Source: Mustelus asterias
Taxonomy: Eukaryota
Reading direction: 5' to 3'
Assembly: GCF_964213995.1 (NCBI RefSeq)
Contig: NC_135804.1
Location: 59,830,001 to 59,894,000 of the forward strand
DNA length: 64,000 nt
Notes under the pieces: generated by a model
Databases searched by the model: none
What the model was told of the DNA's origin: nothing
The model's input: the letters and a program-made list of their open reading frames with translations, nothing else
Program-made: the position numbers and the translations under genes
Shown: piece after piece, positions 21,386 through 33,600 of the stretch
How the letters are laid out: each line of letters starts with the position of its first letter
Position numbering within the stretch: the stretch's first letter is position 1

Positions 21386-24300
21386 GTATATTGATAGAAT
21401 GCCACGCCGCATAATTTGGCTTTTGGGTCGGATCTGCAAATTCGGGTTTAGTTGATTCCTACACTCCAGCTTTTTCCCCATAATCTCCCACCTCCCCGAA
21501 TGATTCTTCAGGTAAAATTGAAATTTGCTCTTAAGCCCACTTCTACTGTCCTTTCAAGTAGCACATTCTAAAACTTAAATCCGTTTGAAAACATTTCTCC
21601 TCATTTCCATTCAAATTCCGTTCCCAACTATTTTGCCATATTTCTTCGACCGCGAGTTACCGACCCAAGCGTTTCAAATTAGGTATTTTATAATTTCGGT
21701 ATATATTGTCTTGACAGACTGATCGCGGATTATAGGATATTTCAGAAACGGCAGCTTTAAATGTGCACATGTTCCAATGAACACTCATTCTCTAGAAACG
21801 TAAGGAATCAGCGAAGATTTTGACCGTGTGGTTTTATGCAGTTCTCAAGTTTGTCTGCAACAGCGGGACGTATGCGTTACATTCCCCAGCTAAATAAAGA
21901 ATGCGGTCCATTGGTTCACTTCTCCGCAGCAACGGTTTAATTTTAAATTTAGTTCATTGCAACATCGTGGGAAACCGCCTCATGCATATGAACAAGATTA
22001 ATGTTCGTATTTCATTTCTTAGCTTCCAGAATATGAAATCCTTTATCCTGAATATATCATATCTGATCGTTTCTTTCTATTTCTCGATATTATGCAAAAT
22101 ATGCAATTAATTGCAATATGTTTTTCTCACTCCTGTCGCTTTGCATTTTTTTTTCGTCATTTGTCTACTACGGCGACATTTCTTGAATATTTTGTACGAA
22201 ATGTCTCCATGCACTGCAACAAGCCTCCGCTGATCATATGGGATCCAACCATGTTTTCGTTGACCAGTCAGGCAAAAGGCGAGCAGATTTTCCATAATTG
22301 TTACTGCTTTAGGCTAATGCTGCTGATTAAGGTTGCCCATTGTGATTACATTGTTCATGATATTTAATCTCCGCTTAAGCTGGAGGTTTCCTCTCAAGCC
22401 TATACAGCCATGTGTTGAATGGGTAATACCTGCCCTGGAGAATCCATGCTGAATGCGCTCACTTGTCCGGAAAGATGGTGCCACTTACCACCGCCATTGT
22501 AGCTTTTTTCATCAAAACGGGCAGACACTTGATTGGGCTGCTCACAGACTAATTGGAGACCGATACAATGTAAGTCGTTTTTTCTCGATGAAGATCACCG
22601 ACTGCTGTGTGAGATTCTTAATGGCCAGATAGATGCAATAGATGATACCTTTTATAAGATGGAACCTAGTGATGGCTGGGAATCCAATTAATTTATCTAC
22701 CTGTTGCACGAATAGATTTGGTAATGAAATTGCTCACCTCCTAGATGCATCGAAGAATTGCAGGCTGGGATTTTTCATACACATTCTTAGTGGATTAATG
22801 GAAAGATGCGGAACCATATATGTTGGGAAACATGTCACTGCAAGTGTTGTCCAGCAAATCCCATTGGTCTCAGCTCGACTTGCAGAATTATGAATAGACC
22901 AATGACGCCCTCTATGGTCTTTGGAGAGTCCCTATGGATCAATCCCACGCCAGGTGGTCCTCCCATCCTTTTGGAATATTTTGGTAGCACAATTCCGTCA
23001 AACATGCTGTGGCAATTCTGTTGGTAGCAAGTGCATCGCCCCCCTCCCCACCTCCCCCCGCCGCCTCCCCCCCCCCCCCCACCCCCCACCACCACCAGCC
23101 CCACTGAACACCACCCATTACGCAGTATACATGTTGGTGACAGAGTTTCACGCCTTCCACCTGTTGGCGACGTTTCCCTCCGAGGACTTCAGCCGCTGGC
23201 TGGCAACGCCTCCGTTCCCCAATTAATTTCTCCCTTGCCACATAACTTATCTTTCAGAACGAATGGCTGGCAGATATTCCGCCTTACTGCAGTGTGAAAT
23301 CCATGCTCTTTCCCACTCTTTGTCACAATGGGAGGCAAGTTCGCAACAGTTTGCTTCTAGTTGAGTGAATCAAGGCTACACTTACGCTCGTCTCCCGTAT
23401 CAAACATCAATCTACCCTGCTCTTACAGGTCCAATAAATTCTACGCTCACTCCTGTCGGGGCCGCATTGCGTGATTGTTTTATGTGTCAGCATAATGCTT
23501 ATAATGCATCATTTAATAGCTTGATTGTGAATTTCTGTAGTTGTGAGCCCTCACTATATGGCGAACACTTGAGGTAGAAGACATTAATGGAGTGCACAGA
23601 ATGAGAGTGATGGTGAATGTATCTTTAGCCTTAATGTAATGACGTGGCCAATAGGGATAAAAGGCCTACACGGCTACCTCGATGAGAAGACTAAATCGCT
23701 TCTGCCGACATTTTAAGATATCGTAAGAGAAACATGAACTTGTGAGTGAGTGGCGTTTTTCCATGGCATGTATGCCAATGGTTATTAACTTCGTTAATAC
23801 GAGTGTATTTGCACACGTTGCCGGGTCTGGATCATCTGCTCCGCTCCCTTTCAGGGACAAGGAGAAAAAGTTGAGCCCATTATAATCGTCATTTTTCAAT
23901 TCTATTGCCCCGGTTTGTGTGTACCACGACGATACGTGAGTAACACGCTGGGGCGTACTGCAGGGCTTCCTCGCAATTACTGAAGCATTTGAACCGCATT
24001 TTCAGAAAGCGTTGAATGTTGAATCTTTAACCTTGTAATCATACAATCATGGAATCATACATTGAAGAAGAGGCCCTGCAGCCCATTGAGCCTGCACTGG
24101 CACATTAGAAACACCTGAACTCCCACCTAATCTCATCAGCCAGCACTTGGTCCATAGCCCTGAATGTTATGCCGTGCCAACCGCTCATCCAGGTGTATTT
24201 TAAAGTATGTGAAGCAACCCGCCTTTACCACCCTCCCAGGCAGTGCATTCCAGGCCGTCACCATCCTCTGGGTAAAAAGCGCTTTCCTCACATCCCCCCT

Positions 24301-24891
24301 AAATCTCCTGCCCCTCACCTTGAACGTATGTCCTCTTGTGACTGACCCTTCAACTAACAGGAACAGCTGCTCCCTACCCATTCTGTCCATGCCCGTCATT
24401 ATCGTGTACGCCTCAATCATGTCGCCCCTCAGTCATCTCTGCTCCAACGAAAACAATCCAAGCCTATCCAACCTCCCTTCATAACTTAAATGTTCAATTT
24501 CAGGCAGCATCCTGGTGAATCTCCTCTGCACTCTCTCGAGTGCAATCGCAATCTTCCTATAATGTGGTGACAGAACTGCACACAATACTCTAGCTGTGGT
24601 CTCACCAAAATTATATACAACTCCAACATTACTTTCCTGCTTTTGTAATCTAAGTCTTGATTGATAAAGGCAAGTGAACCATATGCATTTTTCACCACCT
24701 TACTAATATGCCCTTCCAGCTCCAGAGATCTGTGGATAAACACGCCAAGGTCCCTTCGTTCCACAGAACTTCCGAGCGTCGACCATTCATTGAATGCTTC
24801 ATTATCAAATTACTCTTTCTAACGTGTATCCCCTCACACCATTCAGGGTTAAATTCCATCTGCCACTTAGCTGCCTATTTGATAATTCCAT

Positions 24892-25713
24892 TGTGGTGAT
24901 ATAAACAGGGCCAAGTTTTAAGGCTGATAAAATTGGATATCCTAAATTAAAGAATGGGGCATATTCAAATCAAACACAAACCTCAGACAGGCCAATTATA
25001 CAAATACACAAACGTGCCTGGGCCTGACCCATCAACCATCCATCAAAGGTCGTTACACTCTACTTGAGACGTAGCAGGAGATCATGGCACCTCATTGAAA
25101 TGTATCGGCCTATTGTTAGAAGCGCAGATCAAGCCAGACTTTCTGTCACCAAGAGTTCCTGCAGATAACTTATCTGATAACAAGTTCAACAACATGGAGA
25201 TGGACACTTGGGGGGGCGGACCCTGGTGTCCTGTCAGGCAGACATCAAGAAACCCACTGGGCATTGGAACCCTCTCCTGGGACCTCATTGGCCGGAAGCC
25301 AGAGATGTTTCTGGAAAGGCAAGCAGGCTGGGGGATAAAGGGGCACATTTTCAGACACACTGCAGCGAAGACTCGATAGGGGAGATGGCCGTGACCATTC
25401 GGAAGACTGACCAGAGAAGGAAGGAAGGAAGAAGCGGCCATCAAGACTCACCTTCGTGACGACGGACCAGAGGGACTCAGAGAATCGGACCTGCAGTTCA
25501 ACCAAACCACCTCTACGGGTAGTATACTTGAATCTGCTGGGGTATCCTCTTGTTTTATGTGGGTAATTTAAGGGTTAATAGTGTTATCATTAATAAACTT
25601 GTTGAAACTTTACTTGTGTTTGTCCTTTGTCCATCTTGCAAATAAGGGCACTGCGGTAAAACCTTGGAGTAAGTAAACTGGTTGAATGTATCTGAGAATT
25701 AACAGGTACAACA
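24892..25713 (+). repeat. 5' LTR (822 bp)
   Basis: TGTGGTG...ACAACA. Direct repeat of 29821-30646. AATAAA at about 25592. Confidence 0.95.
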
Positions 25714-25714
25714 G

Positions 25715-25732
25715 TGGCACCCCAGATGGGAC
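25715..25732 (+). promoter_or_regulatory. Primer binding site, tRNA-Arg(CCU)-type
   Basis: TGGCACCCCAGATGGGAC lies 1 nt after the 5' LTR. Its reverse complement GTCCCATCTGGGGTG-CCA matches the 3' end of a vertebrate tRNA-Arg-CCT as I recall it. Confidence 0.85.
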
Positions 25733-26045
25733 TTCGATAAGAAGTGATACATTGCTCCGAAGTCGAAGCTTCAACCCGGTATTCTCCGACACTCCGTCTG
25801 AGCCTGAATTAAGAGGGCAGCTGCCCCACGTGACGGCCAGTCTTAAGTGAGTGAAGGACTAATACAGATTCAACCAGTAAATTGGACCATAACGGTGTCT
25901 GTGACACAAGGTGGACAAACTGTGTAGTTAGAACTAGAACAGTCCAGGGAATTTGGGTAAAATCTACGGGAGGGAATTTAGTGAAAACCAGACCCCTTCC
26001 CCGATCCCTTACCTATACTCAAGTGACGAATCCTAAAAGGAAATA

Positions 26046-27947
26046 ATGATGGCCAGTCATGCTGAATGGGGGGACCTCTGGGATTGGGGTTCAAATGTCC
26101 AATTCCACCCATGGGTCTGCATTCTGTCACAACTGGCCGTATTAGGAATCCTACTTATGGCAGTGTACCTAACCATCCTCACACTTAAGTTCTCCAGATA
26201 GGCAGAGGAAGTTAAACGTAAATGCAGCGACCTACAGGCTGCAGTGAAAGTTTTGCACCAAGCAGGAAAAGTAAAAACAGGCCGCGCAACAGACCACTCC
26301 AAATGCCTGCACGAGATTAAAGATCTAAAAGCGCAACTCTCCATAAAAAGGGGTGTTATGTGTGCATACAGGACCGAAACAGGGGACAGTGACCCAGGGG
26401 TAGAGTTGGGGGATTTAGAAGAGGATGCCTGCCATTATGCAACAGCTAGCATCACTGCCGACTGGGGACCCCCACCTCCCTTCCCGGTAATGGAACCAAC
26501 GGCACCACCTAATTCGGCCCCCATCTGGGGAAACTCAATCTCAGCTCCTAGTCCTTTTATCATCCCAATAAGCCCAGCCACTAATCCGGTTCCTGTGCCG
26601 ATGAATCCGGTCACCACCCGATGACAGGACGGTCAGAACCACAATGTGACTTATGTAACTCCATATACCATGACACAGCTCACTGACATCGCTAAAGCGA
26701 TTGGAGTATTTGAACCCTCCGGGGATCCACATGCTCTCTTTGATCAGGTCACCCAATACCGTGTTTTAAACGGCCTACACGAGGCAGAAGAGGTTAAACT
26801 TATTCTGTTATGTTTAAGACCTGCCATCCGTTCCGCCCTACCTGAACCCCAGAACATGGCTAGGGGAACCCTACCAGAAATGAAGGTAGCCGTTCTGGCC
26901 GCCATCGGCTACAATAGGGATGACCCGGTACAAGGCTTAAACAACTGCCAACAAAAGAGAGGGGAGCACCCGACGGCCTATGCTGGCCGACTATGGAACC
27001 AATTTGTTGCGGTTTTCGGCCAATTAAATCGAGTCCAATTAAATGCACACCACTGGCCCACATGGATCCGGACCCTGATAGCACACGCCACCGAGGGGAG
27101 TCAGAAAGCCTCTGAGAATTTTGATCAAGATGATAATACACACACAGAAGCCTGGGCCATCCGCAAAATGACTCGTGTGTGGGAACCGGAAGTCAGACAA
27201 ACAGACACCCCCAAGTCCACAAAACACGGAAAGATGAACCCAATCCACACAGACCTAGCCCCAGTTTGGCTTAACGAAGGGGAAAGTGGAAACAGGGGAC
27301 AGGGAAACTCAGGGCACCCACCCCCATATATCCCTGCCAATCATCGATACAGAAAACCGCAGCCCCGCGCAGAGCCCCGATATATTCTCAACCCCAAGTA
27401 TAGGGAACAAGATAAAACCAAGCCCAGACATGCACCCCCACAAGCACAGTGTTATAACTGTGGGCATCCCAACCATTTTGCCCGGGGCTGTAGGGCACCA
27501 CCAAATTTCAGGGGACCAGCAAACACCGCACACCCATACACCCCTGCTGATCGCCGACACAGGGAACCACAAGGCTGCACAGGACATAAGCCCAACCCCC
27601 GACACCGAGAACGATATAGAGCTGAGCCCAGAGGCTCACGCCCACAAGCACAGTGTTATACCTGCGAGCAACCCAACCATTTCACCCGGAACTGTAGGGC
27701 ACCACCCAACTACCCCACACGACCATCTCAGCAGTTGCCCGACGATGGACTCCGACCCATGCCCCTTGAAGGACCAGCCCGACAAGCAGCTAAAGACCCC
27801 AGATTCCTGGCAGGCAAGCTAACCTACGTCGGGGAGCCCCATGAATGCCAGGTTCCGGCAATAAAAGACCCCAAGGGGCCATTTTTGCCAAAACAAAAGG
27901 GGGAGGAGCAAGGGGAATCAGCCAAACCCAGGCTCAGGACAGTTTAA
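26046..27947 (+). pseudogene. gag: gag with two in-frame stops, apparently fused to a short pol connection remnant
   Basis: ATG 26046 and the ORFs at 26244 and 26646 share one frame, broken only by a TAG (~26199) and a TGA (26622). Capsid-like region, two CCHC knuckles (CYNCGHPNHFARGC, CYTCEQPNHFTRNC), PTAP and PPPY motifs. Confidence 0.85.
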
Positions 27948-28115
27948 AAGTTTTTGTAGATGGGTCATCCATGGTGGAAGAGGGAAACAGGAGGACAGGA
28001 TGCGGGATATATGTGGAAGACCAAGAAAGCCAGCCCCTCGGTATACAAGGTCATGGTAGACCACAAGAAAGCCACGTGGTATCATGTGAACCAAATGAAG
28101 GCAGTCGGCTCCCAG
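27944..28115 (+). pseudogene. pol: pol remnants: RNase H N-terminus joined to integrase C-terminus
   Basis: LKVFVDGSSMVEEGNRRTGCGIY resembles the first RNase H catalytic motif. It is followed in another frame by SPSVYKVMVDHKKATWYHVNQMK, resembling an integrase C-terminal domain. No protease, RT core or integrase core is visible. Confidence 0.75.
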
Positions 28116-29124
28116 CAAAATTTTCACCAATACCATGTCACCCTGGAAGAGTCTTTGAGTCACAGGGAAGCCCCAACCCTCACCCCACAGCACCGGACCT
28201 AAACCACGGTCCACAATCTGTACCCCAGGTTATCAACCTCCACCCAGTATCCACAGGAACAGCACACGCAACCTCGGTCCCCGCCCCAATTTACAGGGCT
28301 TCAGGAATAAATCCCCGGCCCAGGGGACCCCGACGAAAAGGATGGGGAAACCGGAAACCTTACCCCCTGTGGTGCCCCTGGTACCGGGACTCCCAGAACC
28401 GTTTGACCCGGCGCTCACTACCAGAGGTGGTAATGCAGTGGGTACCTGGCAGCCAAAGCCCGCCCACATAGGTTCCCTCCACTAAGAAAGAATCAGGGCA
28501 TCACAGTCCAGATTGTAAATAGCTTTATCCGTCCACGCCATGCATCACCCAATTGAAAAAGGCTTAAGAAAGAATCAGGACATCACAGTCCAGATTGTAG
28601 GTAGCTTTCTCCGTCCACTCCACGCATTACCCAATTGAAAAGGGTTTCTTATCTGCCCACGTTAACCTGCATCATAATTTTCCGACACCCCACGGTTTGG
28701 TTGTGAGATGAAGAATCTATTGTTATACTGTGCCATAGTCCTCCAACAACAAGGACACATGCCACAGACCCAACATTTTATTTTCACGCTCTGCAAACTC
28801 CTTACCCAACTCAACCCCATCAACACTGATTGCCGACCAACCTTTCATATGACACTCTTGGGCCTTTATTATTCCTTCACTTATTTCTTTGTTTTTTTAA
28901 AAAAGAGGAGTCATATGACATTCTAGTAAAGAAAAGGAAAAGAGAATCAGATATTAATAAGAATTAACAGGTGCTACCTTGATCTTCCCCAGAATGAACT
29001 ACATACTTCCCTGTTATCTGGGACTCCTCGTCTCAGACCGAACCACAGACACCACATCAACCAAAGACCAGAAGATCAGCCTACGATAACCTGGATATAT
29101 GTGGTTCACCCCACGCCCGATGGA

Positions 29125-29520
29125 AGTACACTCATCAGAGGTCAACCTTTTGGCACCCCGTAGAAACTTTCTGGAAGGGGACTACAGAACAGTATCTAAA
29201 GAACGTAAAATCTTGCAGAATAAAATACTTAATTTAGATGCAGCAAAAGCAAGACTGAAGAAGGCAAAGGTTTCAGAGGCCCGTTCAGCAGCAGAACAGG
29301 AAATGCAAATTACACAAAGTGAATTTGATTGCCAGGCAGAGAACACAAGACTTTTGCTTGAAGGAATTAGCAGTACACATGCTCATCACCTTCATTGGCT
29401 GCGTGACAATGTTGATGCCCAGTTGACCTACTATGCTCAGTGTTACTAGTATATGGTTGATTTACAGAAGCAACTTGGAAGTTTTCCAACCACATTTTCT
29501 TCCAACAACAATCAGCCTGC
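29125..29520 (+). pseudogene. SH3GLB1: Processed (intronless) endophilin-B1 fragment: C-terminal half of the N-BAR domain plus linker start
   Basis: NLLAPRRNFLEGDYRTVSKERKILQNKILNLDAAKARLKKAK...EQEMQITQSEFDCQAENTRLLLEGISSTHAHHL...AQLTYYAQCY*YMVDLQKQLGSFPTTFSSNNNQ aligns along its length with vertebrate SH3GLB1 as recalled (NFLTPLRNFIEGDYKTIAKERKLLQNKRLDLDAAKTRLKKAK...YYAQCYQYMLDLQKQLGSFPSNYLSNNNQ). Confidence 0.93.
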
Positions 29521-29808
29521 TCGGCTTACTGTTTATTGCTTTGTTTTGTATATACCCGATTGACGTATTGTTTCTTATTGTTTCTTTGATTATTTTACTT
29601 CAGTTTGCACTGTCTATTGCTTTGTTTTGTTTATACCCGATTGATGTATTGTTTCTTATTGTTTTTTAAGAATTATTTTACATCATTTAAATTTGTTGGT
29701 ACTATTGTGGGTTAGGGATGATACCGCCAACGCTAGATACGGGATGCTTGCTTGTTGAGATGGTTTGGTGAGACTTGTGTGATCCGGTTCACTGACGCTC
29801 ATTGGATC

Positions 29809-29820
29809 AAAAGGAGGGAA
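29809..29820 (+). promoter_or_regulatory. Polypurine tract
   Basis: AAAAGGAGGGAA directly abutting the 3' LTR. Confidence 0.9.
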
Positions 29821-30646
29821 TTTGGTGATATAAACAGGGCCTAGTTTTAAGGCTGATAAAATTGGATATCCTAATTTAAAGAATTGGGCATATTGAAATC
29901 AAACACAGTCAAACCTCAAGCAGGCCAATTATACAAATGCACAAACGTGTCTGGGCCTGACCCATCAACTACCCATCAAAGGTCGTTACACTCTACTTGA
30001 GACGTAGCAGGAGATCATGGCACCTCATTGAAATGCATTGGCCTATTGTTAGAAGCGCAGATCAAGCCAGACTTTCTGTCACCAAGAGTTCCTGCAGATA
30101 ACTTATCTGATAACAAGTTCAACAACATGGAGATGGACACTTGGGGGGGCGGACCCTGGTGTCCTGTCAGGCAGACATCAAGAAACCCACTGGGTATTGG
30201 AAGCCCCTCCTGGCACCTCATTGGCCAGAAGCCAGAGAAGTTTCTGGAAAGGCAAGCAGGCTGGGGGACAAAGGGACGCATTTTCAGACACACTGCAGCG
30301 AAGACTCAACAGGGGAGACGGCCGTGACCATTCACCAGACTGACCAGAGAAGGAAGGAAGGAAGAAGCGGCCATCAAAACTCACCTTCATGACGACGGAC
30401 CAGAGGGACTCAGAGAATCGGACCTGCAGTTCAACCAAACCATCTTTACAGGTGGTATACTTGAATCTGCTGGGGTATCCTCTTGTTTTATGTGGGTAAT
30501 TTAAGGGTTAATAGTGTTATTATTAATAAACTTGTTGAACCTCCACTTGTGTTTGTCCTTCGTCCAACTTGCAAATAAGGGCACCGGGGTAAAACCTTGG
30601 AGTGAGTAAACTGGTTGAAAGTATCTGAGAATTAACAGGTACAACA
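29821..30646 (+). repeat. 3' LTR (826 bp)
   Basis: Highly similar to the 5' LTR with scattered substitutions and small indels; the initial TG reads TT. Confidence 0.95.
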
Positions 30647-33600
30647 CCATCTATATCTTCTTATAGGTAGTTAGCCTTGCTGCTAACCACCTGGCAAATT
30701 TTTGTGTCATCTGCAAACTTATTAATGCTTCCCCACGAAGTCATCTATGCCATTTCCATAAAGGACAGATAATATAGGACCCAACACGGATCCCTGTGGT
30801 ATGCAAATCGACTATGGCTTCCAGTCACTAAAGCAGCCTTCTGCCATCTCTCTCTCATACAATAGAACCAATTCTGAATCCACTTTGTCAAATTGTCCTG
30901 TATCCCATGTGCATTTACCTTCTTTATAAGTCTCCTATATGGAACATTATCAAAAGCTTTGCTAAAAACCATTTTAACTACTCTCGACAGCACTACCCAC
31001 GTACACACACCTGGTAACGGCCTCAAAAAATTCAAACAACTTTGTTAGGCATGATTCCCCCCCCCCCCCCCCCCCCCCCCCCGCTGATGAAGCAACAATG
31101 ACTATCCAAGTGGATATAGATTCTCTCCTTCAGAATTTTCTCCAAAGGTTTCCCTTTCAATGACGTAAGACACACTGACCTGTACTTCTTTGCTTTATCT
31201 CAGCAACCCTTCTTAAATAGTGGAACCGCATTCGCTGTTCTCCAGTCATCTGGCAACTCCCCCGTGGCCAGAAAGGAATTGAAAATTTGGGTCAGAATTC
31301 TTGTAATCTCCTCCCCTGTCTCCCAGTGCAGCCTAGGGCACACTCCATCGGGACCTGGAGATTCATTCTCTTTTAAGGCTGCCAACACTTCCAATACCTG
31401 GTCCTTCCCTATGTCAATTTGCTCAAGAACCTTACAGTCCCTTTTCCTCAATCCCATACCATCGTCCTCATTGTCTTGGGTGAAAGCGGATTCATTCAAA
31501 CTCTACCAATGTCCTCTGGTGCCACCTACGGATTGCCCTCTTGGTCCCTAATGGGCCCCACTCTTTCCCTCGTTAACATCTTCCCATTGATATTATTAGA
31601 GGATATCTTGAAATTTTCTCTACTTTTACCAGACCGAAATTTCCCATACCCCCTCTCTGCTTTCCTAATCGCTTCCTTCAGCTCCAACCTGCACTTCCTA
31701 TACCTCACTAATGTTTCCACTGATTTGCTCCCCTTCTACTTTATAACAAGGCTTTCTTTTCCTTCTCATTGTATTGTGAATATCTCTGGTCATCCATGGC
31801 TCTCTTGGCTTGTTATGCCTTCCTATCACCCTAGAGGGAACATGCAGGACTTGCACCCTCCCCATTTCATGTTTGAATGCCCCCCCCCCCCCCCACCCGC
31901 CCGCCCGCCACCTCCCCCCCCCCCCCCCCCCCCCGCCCGCCCCCACGCCCTCCCCCACCCCATCCCACTGCTCTTCTGAAGATTTTGTCATTAGTAGCTG
32001 TTCCCAGTCTACCTTGGCCAGATCCTGAACTATTTTACTAAAATCCGCTCTCCCCAATCTAAAGCCTTTTTTGCAGCTTGTCTATTTCCTTGTCCATAAC
32101 AAGTTTGAATTGTACCATGTTGTGACCGCTATCACTAAAATGCTCCCCCAACAGTTCCTCAACCTCTTGTTCGGCTTTAGTCCACATAATTGGGTCTAGC
32201 ATAGATCCTTCCCTTGTTGGACCCTCTACATATTGATCTGCAAAGTTCTCCTGCACATATTTCAGGTAATCTATTCCATCCAAGCCTTCAACTCTATGTA
32301 TATTCCATTTAATGTTGGGAAAGTTAAAATCACCGAATATAATAACCATATTGATATTGTTTTTACACACATCCGCAACTTGAGCACATATTTGCTCCTC
32401 AATATCCCTCTGACTATCTGGGGGTCTATAATAAAGACCTAACAATGTGGCTGTCCCTGTTCCATTCTTAAGCTCTATCCATAAAGTTTCATCAGATCCC
32501 CTTTCCAAAATTGATTCCCTTCCAAAATTGATTCCTTCATTAATAATGCAATGCCTCCTCCTCTTTTATCTCCTCCCCTGTCCTGTCTGAAGATTCTATA
32601 TCCCAGATGTTGAGTTGCCAATCATGCCCTTCCTTCAACCATGTCCCTGTGATGCCCACTATATCACATTACGTATGTGCCTCTCAACTCAACCGAATCA
32701 AACGATTCAAGAACAGCTACTTTCCTGCTGCCATCAGACCTTTGAATGGGGCCTATCTCATATTGAGTTGATCATTAGCTACATCCTCGCCATGGCTGTA
32801 ACACTACATTCTGTACCCTCTCCTTTCCTTCTCTATGTACGGTATGCTTTACTTGTATAGCATGCAACAAACAATACTTTTCACTGTATACTAATACATA
32901 TGACAATAATAAATCAAACCAAAATTGTCACCTTCAATTCACCCGTTTTACCTGCAATTCTCCTGGCGTTAAAGTAGAGGCCATCCAGCCTGGCCTTACT
33001 CCCTTGAAACTTAATACAGCTGCAATCCTTCTGACCTGATTGTTTTACTGTATGATTTGGTGCCCTTACTCTGTGCTCCCCCCCCCCCGCCCCGCCCCCC
33101 GCGCGCCCTTACCCTCGCCACATTAATTCAAACTCCGCCCAACAGCACTGGCAAGAATGTTAGTTGCAGTCTGATTCAGATACAGAACGCCCGCTTGTTC
33201 AGGTCCCACCTTCCCCAGAAATTGTCCCAGTGATCCACCAGTCTAAACCCCTCCTTCTGCACCAACTCTTAAGCCACGCATTAATCTGCAGCATCCTACT
33301 ATTTCTGTGTTCGCTACAACGTGGCATTCGGATTTCAACCCGAGAGGTCCTGCTTTTTAATCTAATGCCTAACTGCCTGAATACTTGATGCAAGACCTCA
33401 CCCATCTTTCTATCATTGGTACCAATATGTACCATGACCTCTGCCTAATCACCCTACCCCTTCAAGATACACTGCAGTCATTCAGTAACATCACGGACCC
33501 TAGCACGAGGGAGGCCACCTATCATTCTGGAGTCACGTTGATGGACACAGTAGCGCCTATCTCTCACCCGATTATAGAATCCCCTATTACCATTGCGCTG

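Follow-up and report, generated by a model that had tools for sequence, protein, structure and literature searches.

A provirus in the DNA of the shark Mustelus asterias carries a spliced piece of a host gene, endophilin-B1 (SH3GLB1), near its 3' end. This raises the question of how a host mRNA came to lie inside a retroviral genome, whether one locus or a whole family is concerned, and whether the virus gained from it. The locus was followed through the window (the whole stretch analysed, 64,000 nucleotides) and through related copies in the genome. We find that a multi-copy endogenous retrovirus (ERV) family transduced the spliced SH3GLB1 piece, as the initial annotation had proposed, and that this cargo was probably copied around the genome as a passenger.

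Structure of the provirus

The provirus is complete, in line with the first description, and has the 4-bp TSD, LTRs, PBS and PPT of an endogenous retrovirus; we take the PBS to be of the tRNA-Arg type. The following features frame the element and its gag and pol:

24187..31217, minus strand: LINE ORF2 remnant, cut in two by the provirus
24888..24891, plus strand: 5' TSD CCAT
24892..25713, plus strand: 5' LTR, TG...CA, 822 bp
25715..25732, plus strand: PBS
26046..27800, plus strand: gag, disrupted here, with a coiled and a capsid-like region and two CCHC knuckles
27798..28039, plus strand: pol remnant of about 80 codons, RT-connection/RNase H boundary
28026..28482, plus strand: pol remnant of about 150 codons, C-terminal end of integrase
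29809..29820, plus strand: PPT
29821..30646, plus strand: 3' LTR
30647..30650, plus strand: 3' TSD CCAT

The two LTRs differ at 44 of 822 aligned bases. Residues 80-194 of the LINE ORF2 query lie at 30981-30649 and residues 200-231 at 24874-24779, on either side of the provirus; LINE remnants are plentiful in this region. The gag gene, described initially as kept, is present, but it is disrupted by a 159-nt deletion and by stops at 26199 and 26622. Almost all of pol is gone, as had been noted, and the protease and RT core are absent from the pol of this copy. The order PR-RT-tether-RNase H-IN is present in the sibling L033, and the RT core and integrase find their best solved-structure matches in foamy virus (E = 1e-20 for foamy Pol versus 2e-11 for MLV). 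The pol-deleted form is the commonest among cargo-bearing copies, which agrees with the suggested helper dependence, but siblings carrying pol and cargo together exist, so the family is not purely helper-dependent.

The endophilin-B1 cargo and the env remnant

The region between pol and the PPT contains the remains of env and the cargo:

28970..28993, plus strand: pyrimidine tract and AG directly before the env start codon, a putative splice acceptor judged by sequence only
28994..29114, plus strand: env 5' leader, beginning at the ATG and sharing the frame of the cargo, with a stop in this copy
29115..29126, plus strand: 12-nt env 3'-tail stub, fused to the leader
29127..29527 (end approximate), plus strand: spliced SH3GLB1 cDNA, residues 133 to about 266, with four exon-exon junctions

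The cargo matches the Pfam BAR family (E = 1e-21) and endophilin-B1 6UP6 (E = 6e-45), and its closest named relatives are shark endophilin-B1 proteins (87%). Aligned to the host SH3GLB1 locus, it spans four exon junctions and joins five exons with the GT/AG introns precisely removed and an alternative exon skipped, which bears out the intronless sense copy reported at first. The 32 cargo copies compared diverge from the host exons by 1.2-5.1%. The longest type comprises residues 133-270, inserted as 414 nt. Starting at residue 133 of 363 and matching the 234-position BAR profile only from position 120 onwards, the cargo is the C-terminal half rather than a complete BAR domain with its N-terminal helices, and it lacks the SH3 domain. 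Versions shortened at the 3' end have also spread (43 of 112 protein matches stop at residues 240-243).

The cargo lies in sense orientation, 12 nt after the env deletion join. Comparison with empty-site copies reveals a clean insertion at an intact env-tail site; no lost viral bases, TSD, poly(A) or microhomology were seen at the cargo junctions. Since env-less copies without cargo also exist, the view that the cargo took the place of env is unsupported. A spliced cargo, flanked by neither poly(A) nor TSD and moving with the element, is what characterises host-mRNA capture by ERVs; the junction microsimilarity and replacement of element sequence typical, though not universal, for LTR-mediated retroposition are missing. 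Read-through from a provirus within the host gene was also considered and rejected: the 16.9 kb holding the captured exons contain no family sequence, and the junctions fall mid-exon.

About 1.84 kb of env is missing between the leader and the 3'-tail stub. The 5' join of env, diagnostic of env-bearing copies, gave 115 matches genome-wide (control 0). Env-like frames in L048/L051 and L050/L055 have a cleavage site, which is basic, and a C-terminal hydrophobic helix; the protein may be F-protein-like, with fusion proteins as its candidate look-alikes (0.92, Atlas). No match was obtained with Pfam on the env pieces, with the PF00523 HMM on seven env relatives or among the 226 candidates of a homolog search with one env piece. 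A genome search with PF00523 was silent everywhere, including its own controls, and is hence uninformative. The predicted env fold has a mean pLDDT of 36.

An env-derived Gag N-terminus

26067..26200, plus strand: env-derived membrane-proximal and transmembrane stretch at the Gag start (ATG 26046/26049), from DNA match and hydropathy

In one env-less lineage, the transmembrane (TM) stretch of env itself has replaced the Gag N-terminus. The stretch at the Gag start matches, at 88-93% DNA identity, the end of env in a copy that still has this gene, and reaches a hydropathy of 2.44 over 19 residues. Its join to gag was matched 245 times genome-wide (control junction 0); among 100 listed places it occurred with env in none and with the cargo in 58. 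An ordinary Gag start was found in the one env-bearing copy read and in one copy of a second family. An altered Gag N-terminus is thus linked to env loss, as in IAP elements, and by analogy with these TM-Gag probably anchored Gag to internal membranes, making the element an intracellular retrotransposon. No purifying signal was seen in the TM stretch, where shared changes are nine nonsynonymous to one synonymous.

Copy number and spread

The filled virus-cargo junction was matched 147 times genome-wide (control 0) and the empty site 171 times (control 3); 57 of 100 listed empty sites are env-bearing. The cargo was never found with the env join among 100 listed places, and env-less copies without cargo are outnumbered by cargo copies. 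Eight of ten siblings tested have their own matching 4-bp TSDs; in the exceptions, the 5' LTR was absent from the stretch examined (L024) or the flanks mismatch (L013). With these distinct TSDs, the cargo-bearing genome was multiplied by ordinary LTR retrotransposition, and segmental duplication as the sole cause of the copies is ruled out. The initial annotation named as the contrary outcome a cargo confined to one locus with its own TSD or poly(A); this was looked for and is not what the genome contains.

The LTR end motif was located at 21 of 30 loci, a tandem copy among them, and at these the 3' flanks differ from one another; the 26 contigs C1-C26 hold 85 of 100 listed junctions. About 25 near-identical matches lie on small unplaced contigs and may be duplicates. 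Virus-cargo junction contigs also occur in DNA runs of two other organisms; in another organism, where the element reaches a depth in the thousands, host exons are all that is seen of the cargo region. One presumed RNA run contained host mRNA and the empty site, and its listed pieces include no contig with the junction. A tree of 30 shared stretches (5 of 35 rows were dropped because their overlap was short or interrupted) is weakly supported, and copies with and without cargo interleave in it, so phylogeny does not resolve the order of events.

Reading frame and selection

The fusion of leader and cargo keeps the reading frame of the env ATG and ends in a stop created at the 3' junction. This 182-codon frame is intact in 10 of 30 copies, open frames occur in many copies of all three cargo length types, and the 32 copies compared include no subfamily that was amplified with a frameshift in common. 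In the copy in the window, two stops break the frame, the first within the leader and the second following residue 239.

Measured against the host exons and one natural copy, single-copy changes in the cargo were 73 nonsynonymous, 26 synonymous and 3 stops, and shared changes 20, 12 and 1, for a neutral expectation of 0.68:0.28:0.04. The omega of shared changes was 0.69 (interval 0.32-1.54). Cargo substitutions look neutral by a test of little power; it is not decisive, because shared changes in the Gag control (19 rows, L064 dropped as poorly aligned) were also near neutral (omega 0.6-0.9). The membrane or budding role first envisaged for the cargo finds no support in this low-powered test, in the half BAR domain or in the spread of shortened versions.

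Origin and role of the cargo

We propose the following history, which we consider probable as a whole. An env-bearing retrovirus would have colonised the shark germ line. One of its lineages lost env and exchanged its Gag N-terminus, as the joins record, and in this env-less background a single event placed the spliced endophilin-B1 piece in the env-tail stub. The capture most likely took place when reverse transcriptase left the viral template for a host mRNA packaged alongside it and then returned. LTR retrotransposition then spread the cargo genomes, mostly in pol-deleted form, with enzymes presumably supplied in trans. The cargo would be a passenger and its in-frame fusion an accident with no selected role. 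Against this account stand the cargo junctions, which depart from the usual template-switch pattern (PMC5131818) in having neither microhomology nor viral loss, and likewise the in-frame fusion, its intact frames, the lack of a shared-frameshift subfamily and the excess of cargo copies over env-less cargo-free ones.

The last observations could also mean that the leader-BAR fusion, made via the env splice acceptor, aided spread as a dominant-negative coiled coil with host endophilin or at particle-forming membranes. The reading frame with its new stop, the open frames in every length type and the number of filled relative to empty sites speak for such a function, as do the purifying selection on crocodilian captured ORFs (PMC4299795) and the interaction of MLV Gag with endophilin-A2 cited in PMC12457278. 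That interaction, however, concerns endophilin A and not B1, the N-terminal BAR half and SH3 are missing, shortened cargos spread, synonymous changes are not in excess, and the presumed RNA run listed no junction contig. Moreover, the leader-BAR piece would enter the ER lumen if the env leader, with its weak hydropathy of 0.38, acts as a signal peptide. We regard a functional fusion as unlikely. It is rather doubtful that TM-Gag and the half-BAR made from the env start codon both re-routed particle assembly to internal membranes, the cargo adding a further advantage; TM-Gag alone as a working targeting device is the likelier version, to which we would give about an even chance.

RNA-templated break repair is a known process, and a break in a single master provirus may have been mended with a LINE-made cDNA, LTR retrotransposition afterwards only amplifying a cargo that was still a passenger. 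Such DNA-level entry would suit the clean insertion without viral loss or microhomology and the abundance of LINE remnants here; in PMC5131818, 25 of 29 Drosophila junctions show replacement and microsimilarity and none is a simple interruption. A piece from within an mRNA, truncated on either side, in sense, without poly(A) or TSD and beside an earlier recombination join nevertheless fits switching by reverse transcriptase, and we hold entry at the DNA level to be quite improbable. A single LINE retrocopy into the provirus after integration, or spread by segmental duplication only, is hardly credible: the matches on unplaced contigs may be duplicates, but siblings have their own TSDs and differing flanks, most listed junctions lie on C1-C26, and junction contigs occur in runs of other organisms.

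Comparison with known systems

Acutely transforming retroviruses can have a defective genome in which the env leader is joined to spliced host sequence. The shark element shares this layout; its cargo, unlike theirs, is no known oncogene, is nearly identical to the host gene and has spread in the germ line.

Although the initial annotation knew of no described example, host-mRNA capture by ERVs is already known from crocodilians, where CrocERV31 took up nectin3 and CrocERV29 KIT-ligand (PMC4299795). There too, host mRNA lies in the env region, was later multiplied and has env-bearing relatives. The crocodilian elements number six and nine copies against 147 junctions here, and keep near full-length ORFs under purifying selection, whereas the shark cargo is a half-domain with no selection detectable by a low-powered test; crocodilian ERV4 has a 5-bp TSD and no zinc fingers, the shark element a 4-bp TSD and two CCHC knuckles. 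Cases of LTR-mediated retroposition (FAM8A1/HERV-K, maize Bs1, fly, zebrafish, chicken and mouse; PMC5131818) likewise involve an internal, spliced and truncated mRNA piece without poly(A) or TSD that can retrotranspose again, but in the shark nothing viral was replaced, the junctions lack microsimilarity and the copy number is very high.

In its pol order, the family resembles spuma-related or snakehead-retrovirus-like fish ERVs and lokiretroviruses (PMC4422223, PMC4977317, PMC7947760). Of three carpet-shark genomes surveyed in this literature, none is reported to contain lokiretroviruses; the rate for dating in PMC4422223 is its author's assumption. Further likenesses to these groups are the foamy virus matches of the RT core and integrase and, in env, the basic cleavage site and possibly F-protein-like features; PF00523 was undetected in the seven relatives.

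The fossil series is unusually complete within one genome, with the env-bearing parent, env-less, cargo-bearing and pol-deleted forms each countable by a junction. A retrovirus has carried a host exon block to more than 100 loci in a cartilaginous fish, which points to a route for exon shuffling and for spurious endophilin gene models. As in mouse IAP and MusD (PMC2791754), an altered Gag N-terminus accompanies env loss and amplification while an env-bearing progenitor persists. Unlike in these elements, the shark Gag start demonstrably copies the TM region of the element's own env. If this swap targets Gag to membranes as we infer, the shark element took by convergence the path along which IAP went from virus to retrotransposon, here with molecular steps that can be traced.

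Structure of the provirus and its family

The features of the element and its cargo, a spliced piece of endophilin-B1 (SH3GLB1) cDNA, are as follows.

Features of the provirus (window coordinates)
24892-30646, provirus flanked on either side by a CCAT duplication, with LTRs, primer-binding site and polypurine tract
26067-26200, gag start, matching the 3' end of env of an env-bearing copy
27315-27709, duplicated nucleocapsid segment
28483-28647 and 29528-29688, non-coding tandem repeats (82 and about 81 nt)
29127 to about 29527, cargo, encoding part of endophilin-B1 (Pfam BAR, E 1e-21; 6UP6, E 6e-45)

All hallmarks of the provirus proposed in the initial annotation are present, and the insertion interrupts a LINE ORF2 remnant whose halves resume on either side. 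The LTR pair differs at 44 of 822 aligned bases. Gag is indeed kept, but a 159-nt deletion and two stops break it in this copy. Pol was rightly described as almost wholly lost: what is left comes from the RT/RNase H boundary and from the end of integrase. In the rest of the window (11700-62400), LINE ORF2 remnants are numerous on both strands; neither a tRNA nor a further frame of at least 200 codons recognisable as a gene was found. Its env and dual RNase H layout identify the element as a retrovirus, with spuma-related, snakehead-like and loki groups as candidate affiliations; its RT core and integrase best match foamy virus structures and its RT-RNase H best matches MLV, and the likeness of env to F-type fusion proteins is an Atlas lead only.

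The element belongs to a multi-copy family. Of 160 DNA candidates, 40 were scored and every one matched, the 39 besides the window copy at 94-96%; so did the 112 scored protein candidates (of 215), most of which begin at residue 133. The filled 5' junction, i.e., the virus-cargo join, has 147 genome matches with at most two mismatches (control 0; contigs C1-C26 hold 85/100 among the matches listed), a count that overstates independent insertions, because about 25 almost identical copies of cargo plus integrase, located on small contigs that are unplaced (e.g., C28, C32, C58, C219, C241) and probably an array or segmental amplification, may be duplicates. Ten siblings with a retrieved 5' end were compared for their target-site duplications; eight have their own 4-bp duplication, one has non-matching flanks and in one the 5' LTR was not found. 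Sibling LTR pairs differ by 0.7-3.7%. The primer-binding site varies in some copies (L030, L035, L042), which suggests that two related tRNAs are used; L030 lies within a tandem array on C2.

Four layers of copies make up the family. In copy L048/L051 a broken env survives, with a basic cleavage site and, at its C-terminal end, a hydrophobic helix; L044 and L046 have neither env nor cargo. The env 5' join occurs 115 times in the genome, and the intact tail site has 171 matches, with an env join upstream in 57/100 among those listed; among the cargo sites listed, 0/100 had a listed env join upstream. The commonest cargo copy spans only about 2.7 kb from Gag start to cargo and is thus pol-deleted, so the helper-dependent genome originally proposed may fit these copies. 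It is not the only form: in L033, protease, RT, tether domain, RNase H and integrase precede the cargo, and the copy also has frame breaks and an inserted LINE. Copy L068, whose cargo site (5.4 kb downstream) is empty, has the same 159-nt gag deletion as the window (at 26200), so sublineages appear to have recombined. A second related ERV family (L049, L050, L054, L055), with about 63-70% integrase identity, has env and an ordinary Gag start.

Origin and entry of the cargo

The cargo derives from spliced mRNA. Its alignment to the host endophilin-B1 gene on contig C8 (a paralogue lies on C13) matches five exons end to end, the removed introns starting with GT and finishing with AG; an alternative exon between the captured ones is skipped. 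Both ends fall within exons, and the longest type is 414 nt. The best named relatives are shark proteins (87%). Difference from the host exons is 1.2-5.1% in the 32 copies examined and greatest in the window copy; just 3 differences are common to all 32. Two nested family LTRs lie at G000:C8:126123461-126125077, about 22 kb downstream of the last coding exon of host endophilin-B1, which may be chance given 2071 LTR candidates in the genome.

Contrary to the initial annotation, the cargo did not take the place of env. Env-less copies join a 44-codon env leader to a 12-nt env-tail stub after a loss of about 1.84 kb, and the cargo sits directly behind this stub. The bases flanking it adjoin each other in env-bearing and cargo-free copies, hence no viral sequence was lost, and the cargo entered an already env-less genome. 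A cargo confined to one locus, with its own target-site duplication or poly(A), is contradicted by the number of filled junctions and by cargo ends that show neither mark. Neither end shares a base with the host sequence. The cargo most likely entered when reverse transcription switched template twice, to a co-packaged mRNA and back, although the insertion pattern departs from the one described in PMC5131818; patching of a master copy at the DNA level is a less likely alternative.

Junction contigs were sought in four of the 24 listed sequencing runs. One contig from run X9 (organism E) spans both cargo junctions at depth 55, vs 2 for the host exon contig, and run X6 (organism B) gave contigs over each junction, of which the one at the 5' junction includes just 24 viral-side bases. 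Run X11 yielded host mRNA and the empty site. In run X13 (organism G), viral parts reach depths in the thousands, but the cargo region is represented only by individual exons (depth about 5); the capture was thus not seen in the X13 contigs of this virus-carrying organism, although contigs cannot prove absence. Together, these runs indicate a capture common to some organisms.

Is the cargo functional?

The env ATG is in frame with the cargo, which terminates at a stop created at the junction, and the 182-codon leader-cargo frame is intact in 10/30 copies, with 3 more of a shorter type open; this speaks for a selected role. Against such a role, the cargo lacks SH3 and matches the 234-position BAR profile only from position 120 onwards, and shortened pieces are common (43/112 protein hits end at residues 240-243); the shortened types probably arise from deletions into the 3' repeat. 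Substitutions compared with the host gene also lie near neutral shares (0.68:0.28:0.04 for N:S:stops), with 73:26:3 for changes seen once and 20:12:1 for shared ones (shared omega 0.69, interval 0.32-1.54), in copies picked by likeness to the window copy, not at random. This argument is weakened by the Gag control (first 200 codons, 18 copies), whose shared changes are near neutral as well. The Gag link cited in PMC12457278 concerns endophilin-A2. We consider the cargo probably a passenger, and a selected role unlikely.

An env-derived transmembrane stretch at the Gag start

In sibling L053 the env-derived match at the Gag start is 92-97% over about 139 nt and in frame with the remaining Gag. 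The stretch comprises a tryptophan-rich part and a transmembrane helix whose hydropathy over 19 residues is 2.4-2.5; the two ordinary Gag starts, found in the env-bearing copy and in one second-family copy about 68% alike in integrase, score 1.2 and 0.6. The join of this stretch to Gag occurs 245 times in the genome (control 0); among the best 100 matches listed, a listed cargo site follows downstream in 58, an empty site in 3 and a listed env join in none. Shared changes in the stretch carry no purifying signal.

Comparison with known systems

The capture is real, and it is notable for how many copies exist, for the completeness of the series and for the Gag swap, more than for any cargo function. 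A literature search outside most subscription journals found no publication on an endophilin-carrying shark ERV or on an env-anchor-to-Gag swap. Host-mRNA capture by ERVs in general is already known: crocodilian ERVs captured nectin3 and KIT-ligand mRNA and amplified later (PMC4299795), and capture by LTR elements is described generally (PMC5131818). In the latter, element sequence was replaced and microsimilarity was present at 25/29 fly junctions, whereas the shark cargo shows neither replacement nor microsimilarity. Mouse IAP and MusD went intracellular via changes of the Gag N-terminus, with env decay after (PMC2791754). By the same logic the shark element may have turned intracellular via its Gag-start anchor; the Gag N-terminus is changed in both, and the putative shark anchor comes from the element's own env.
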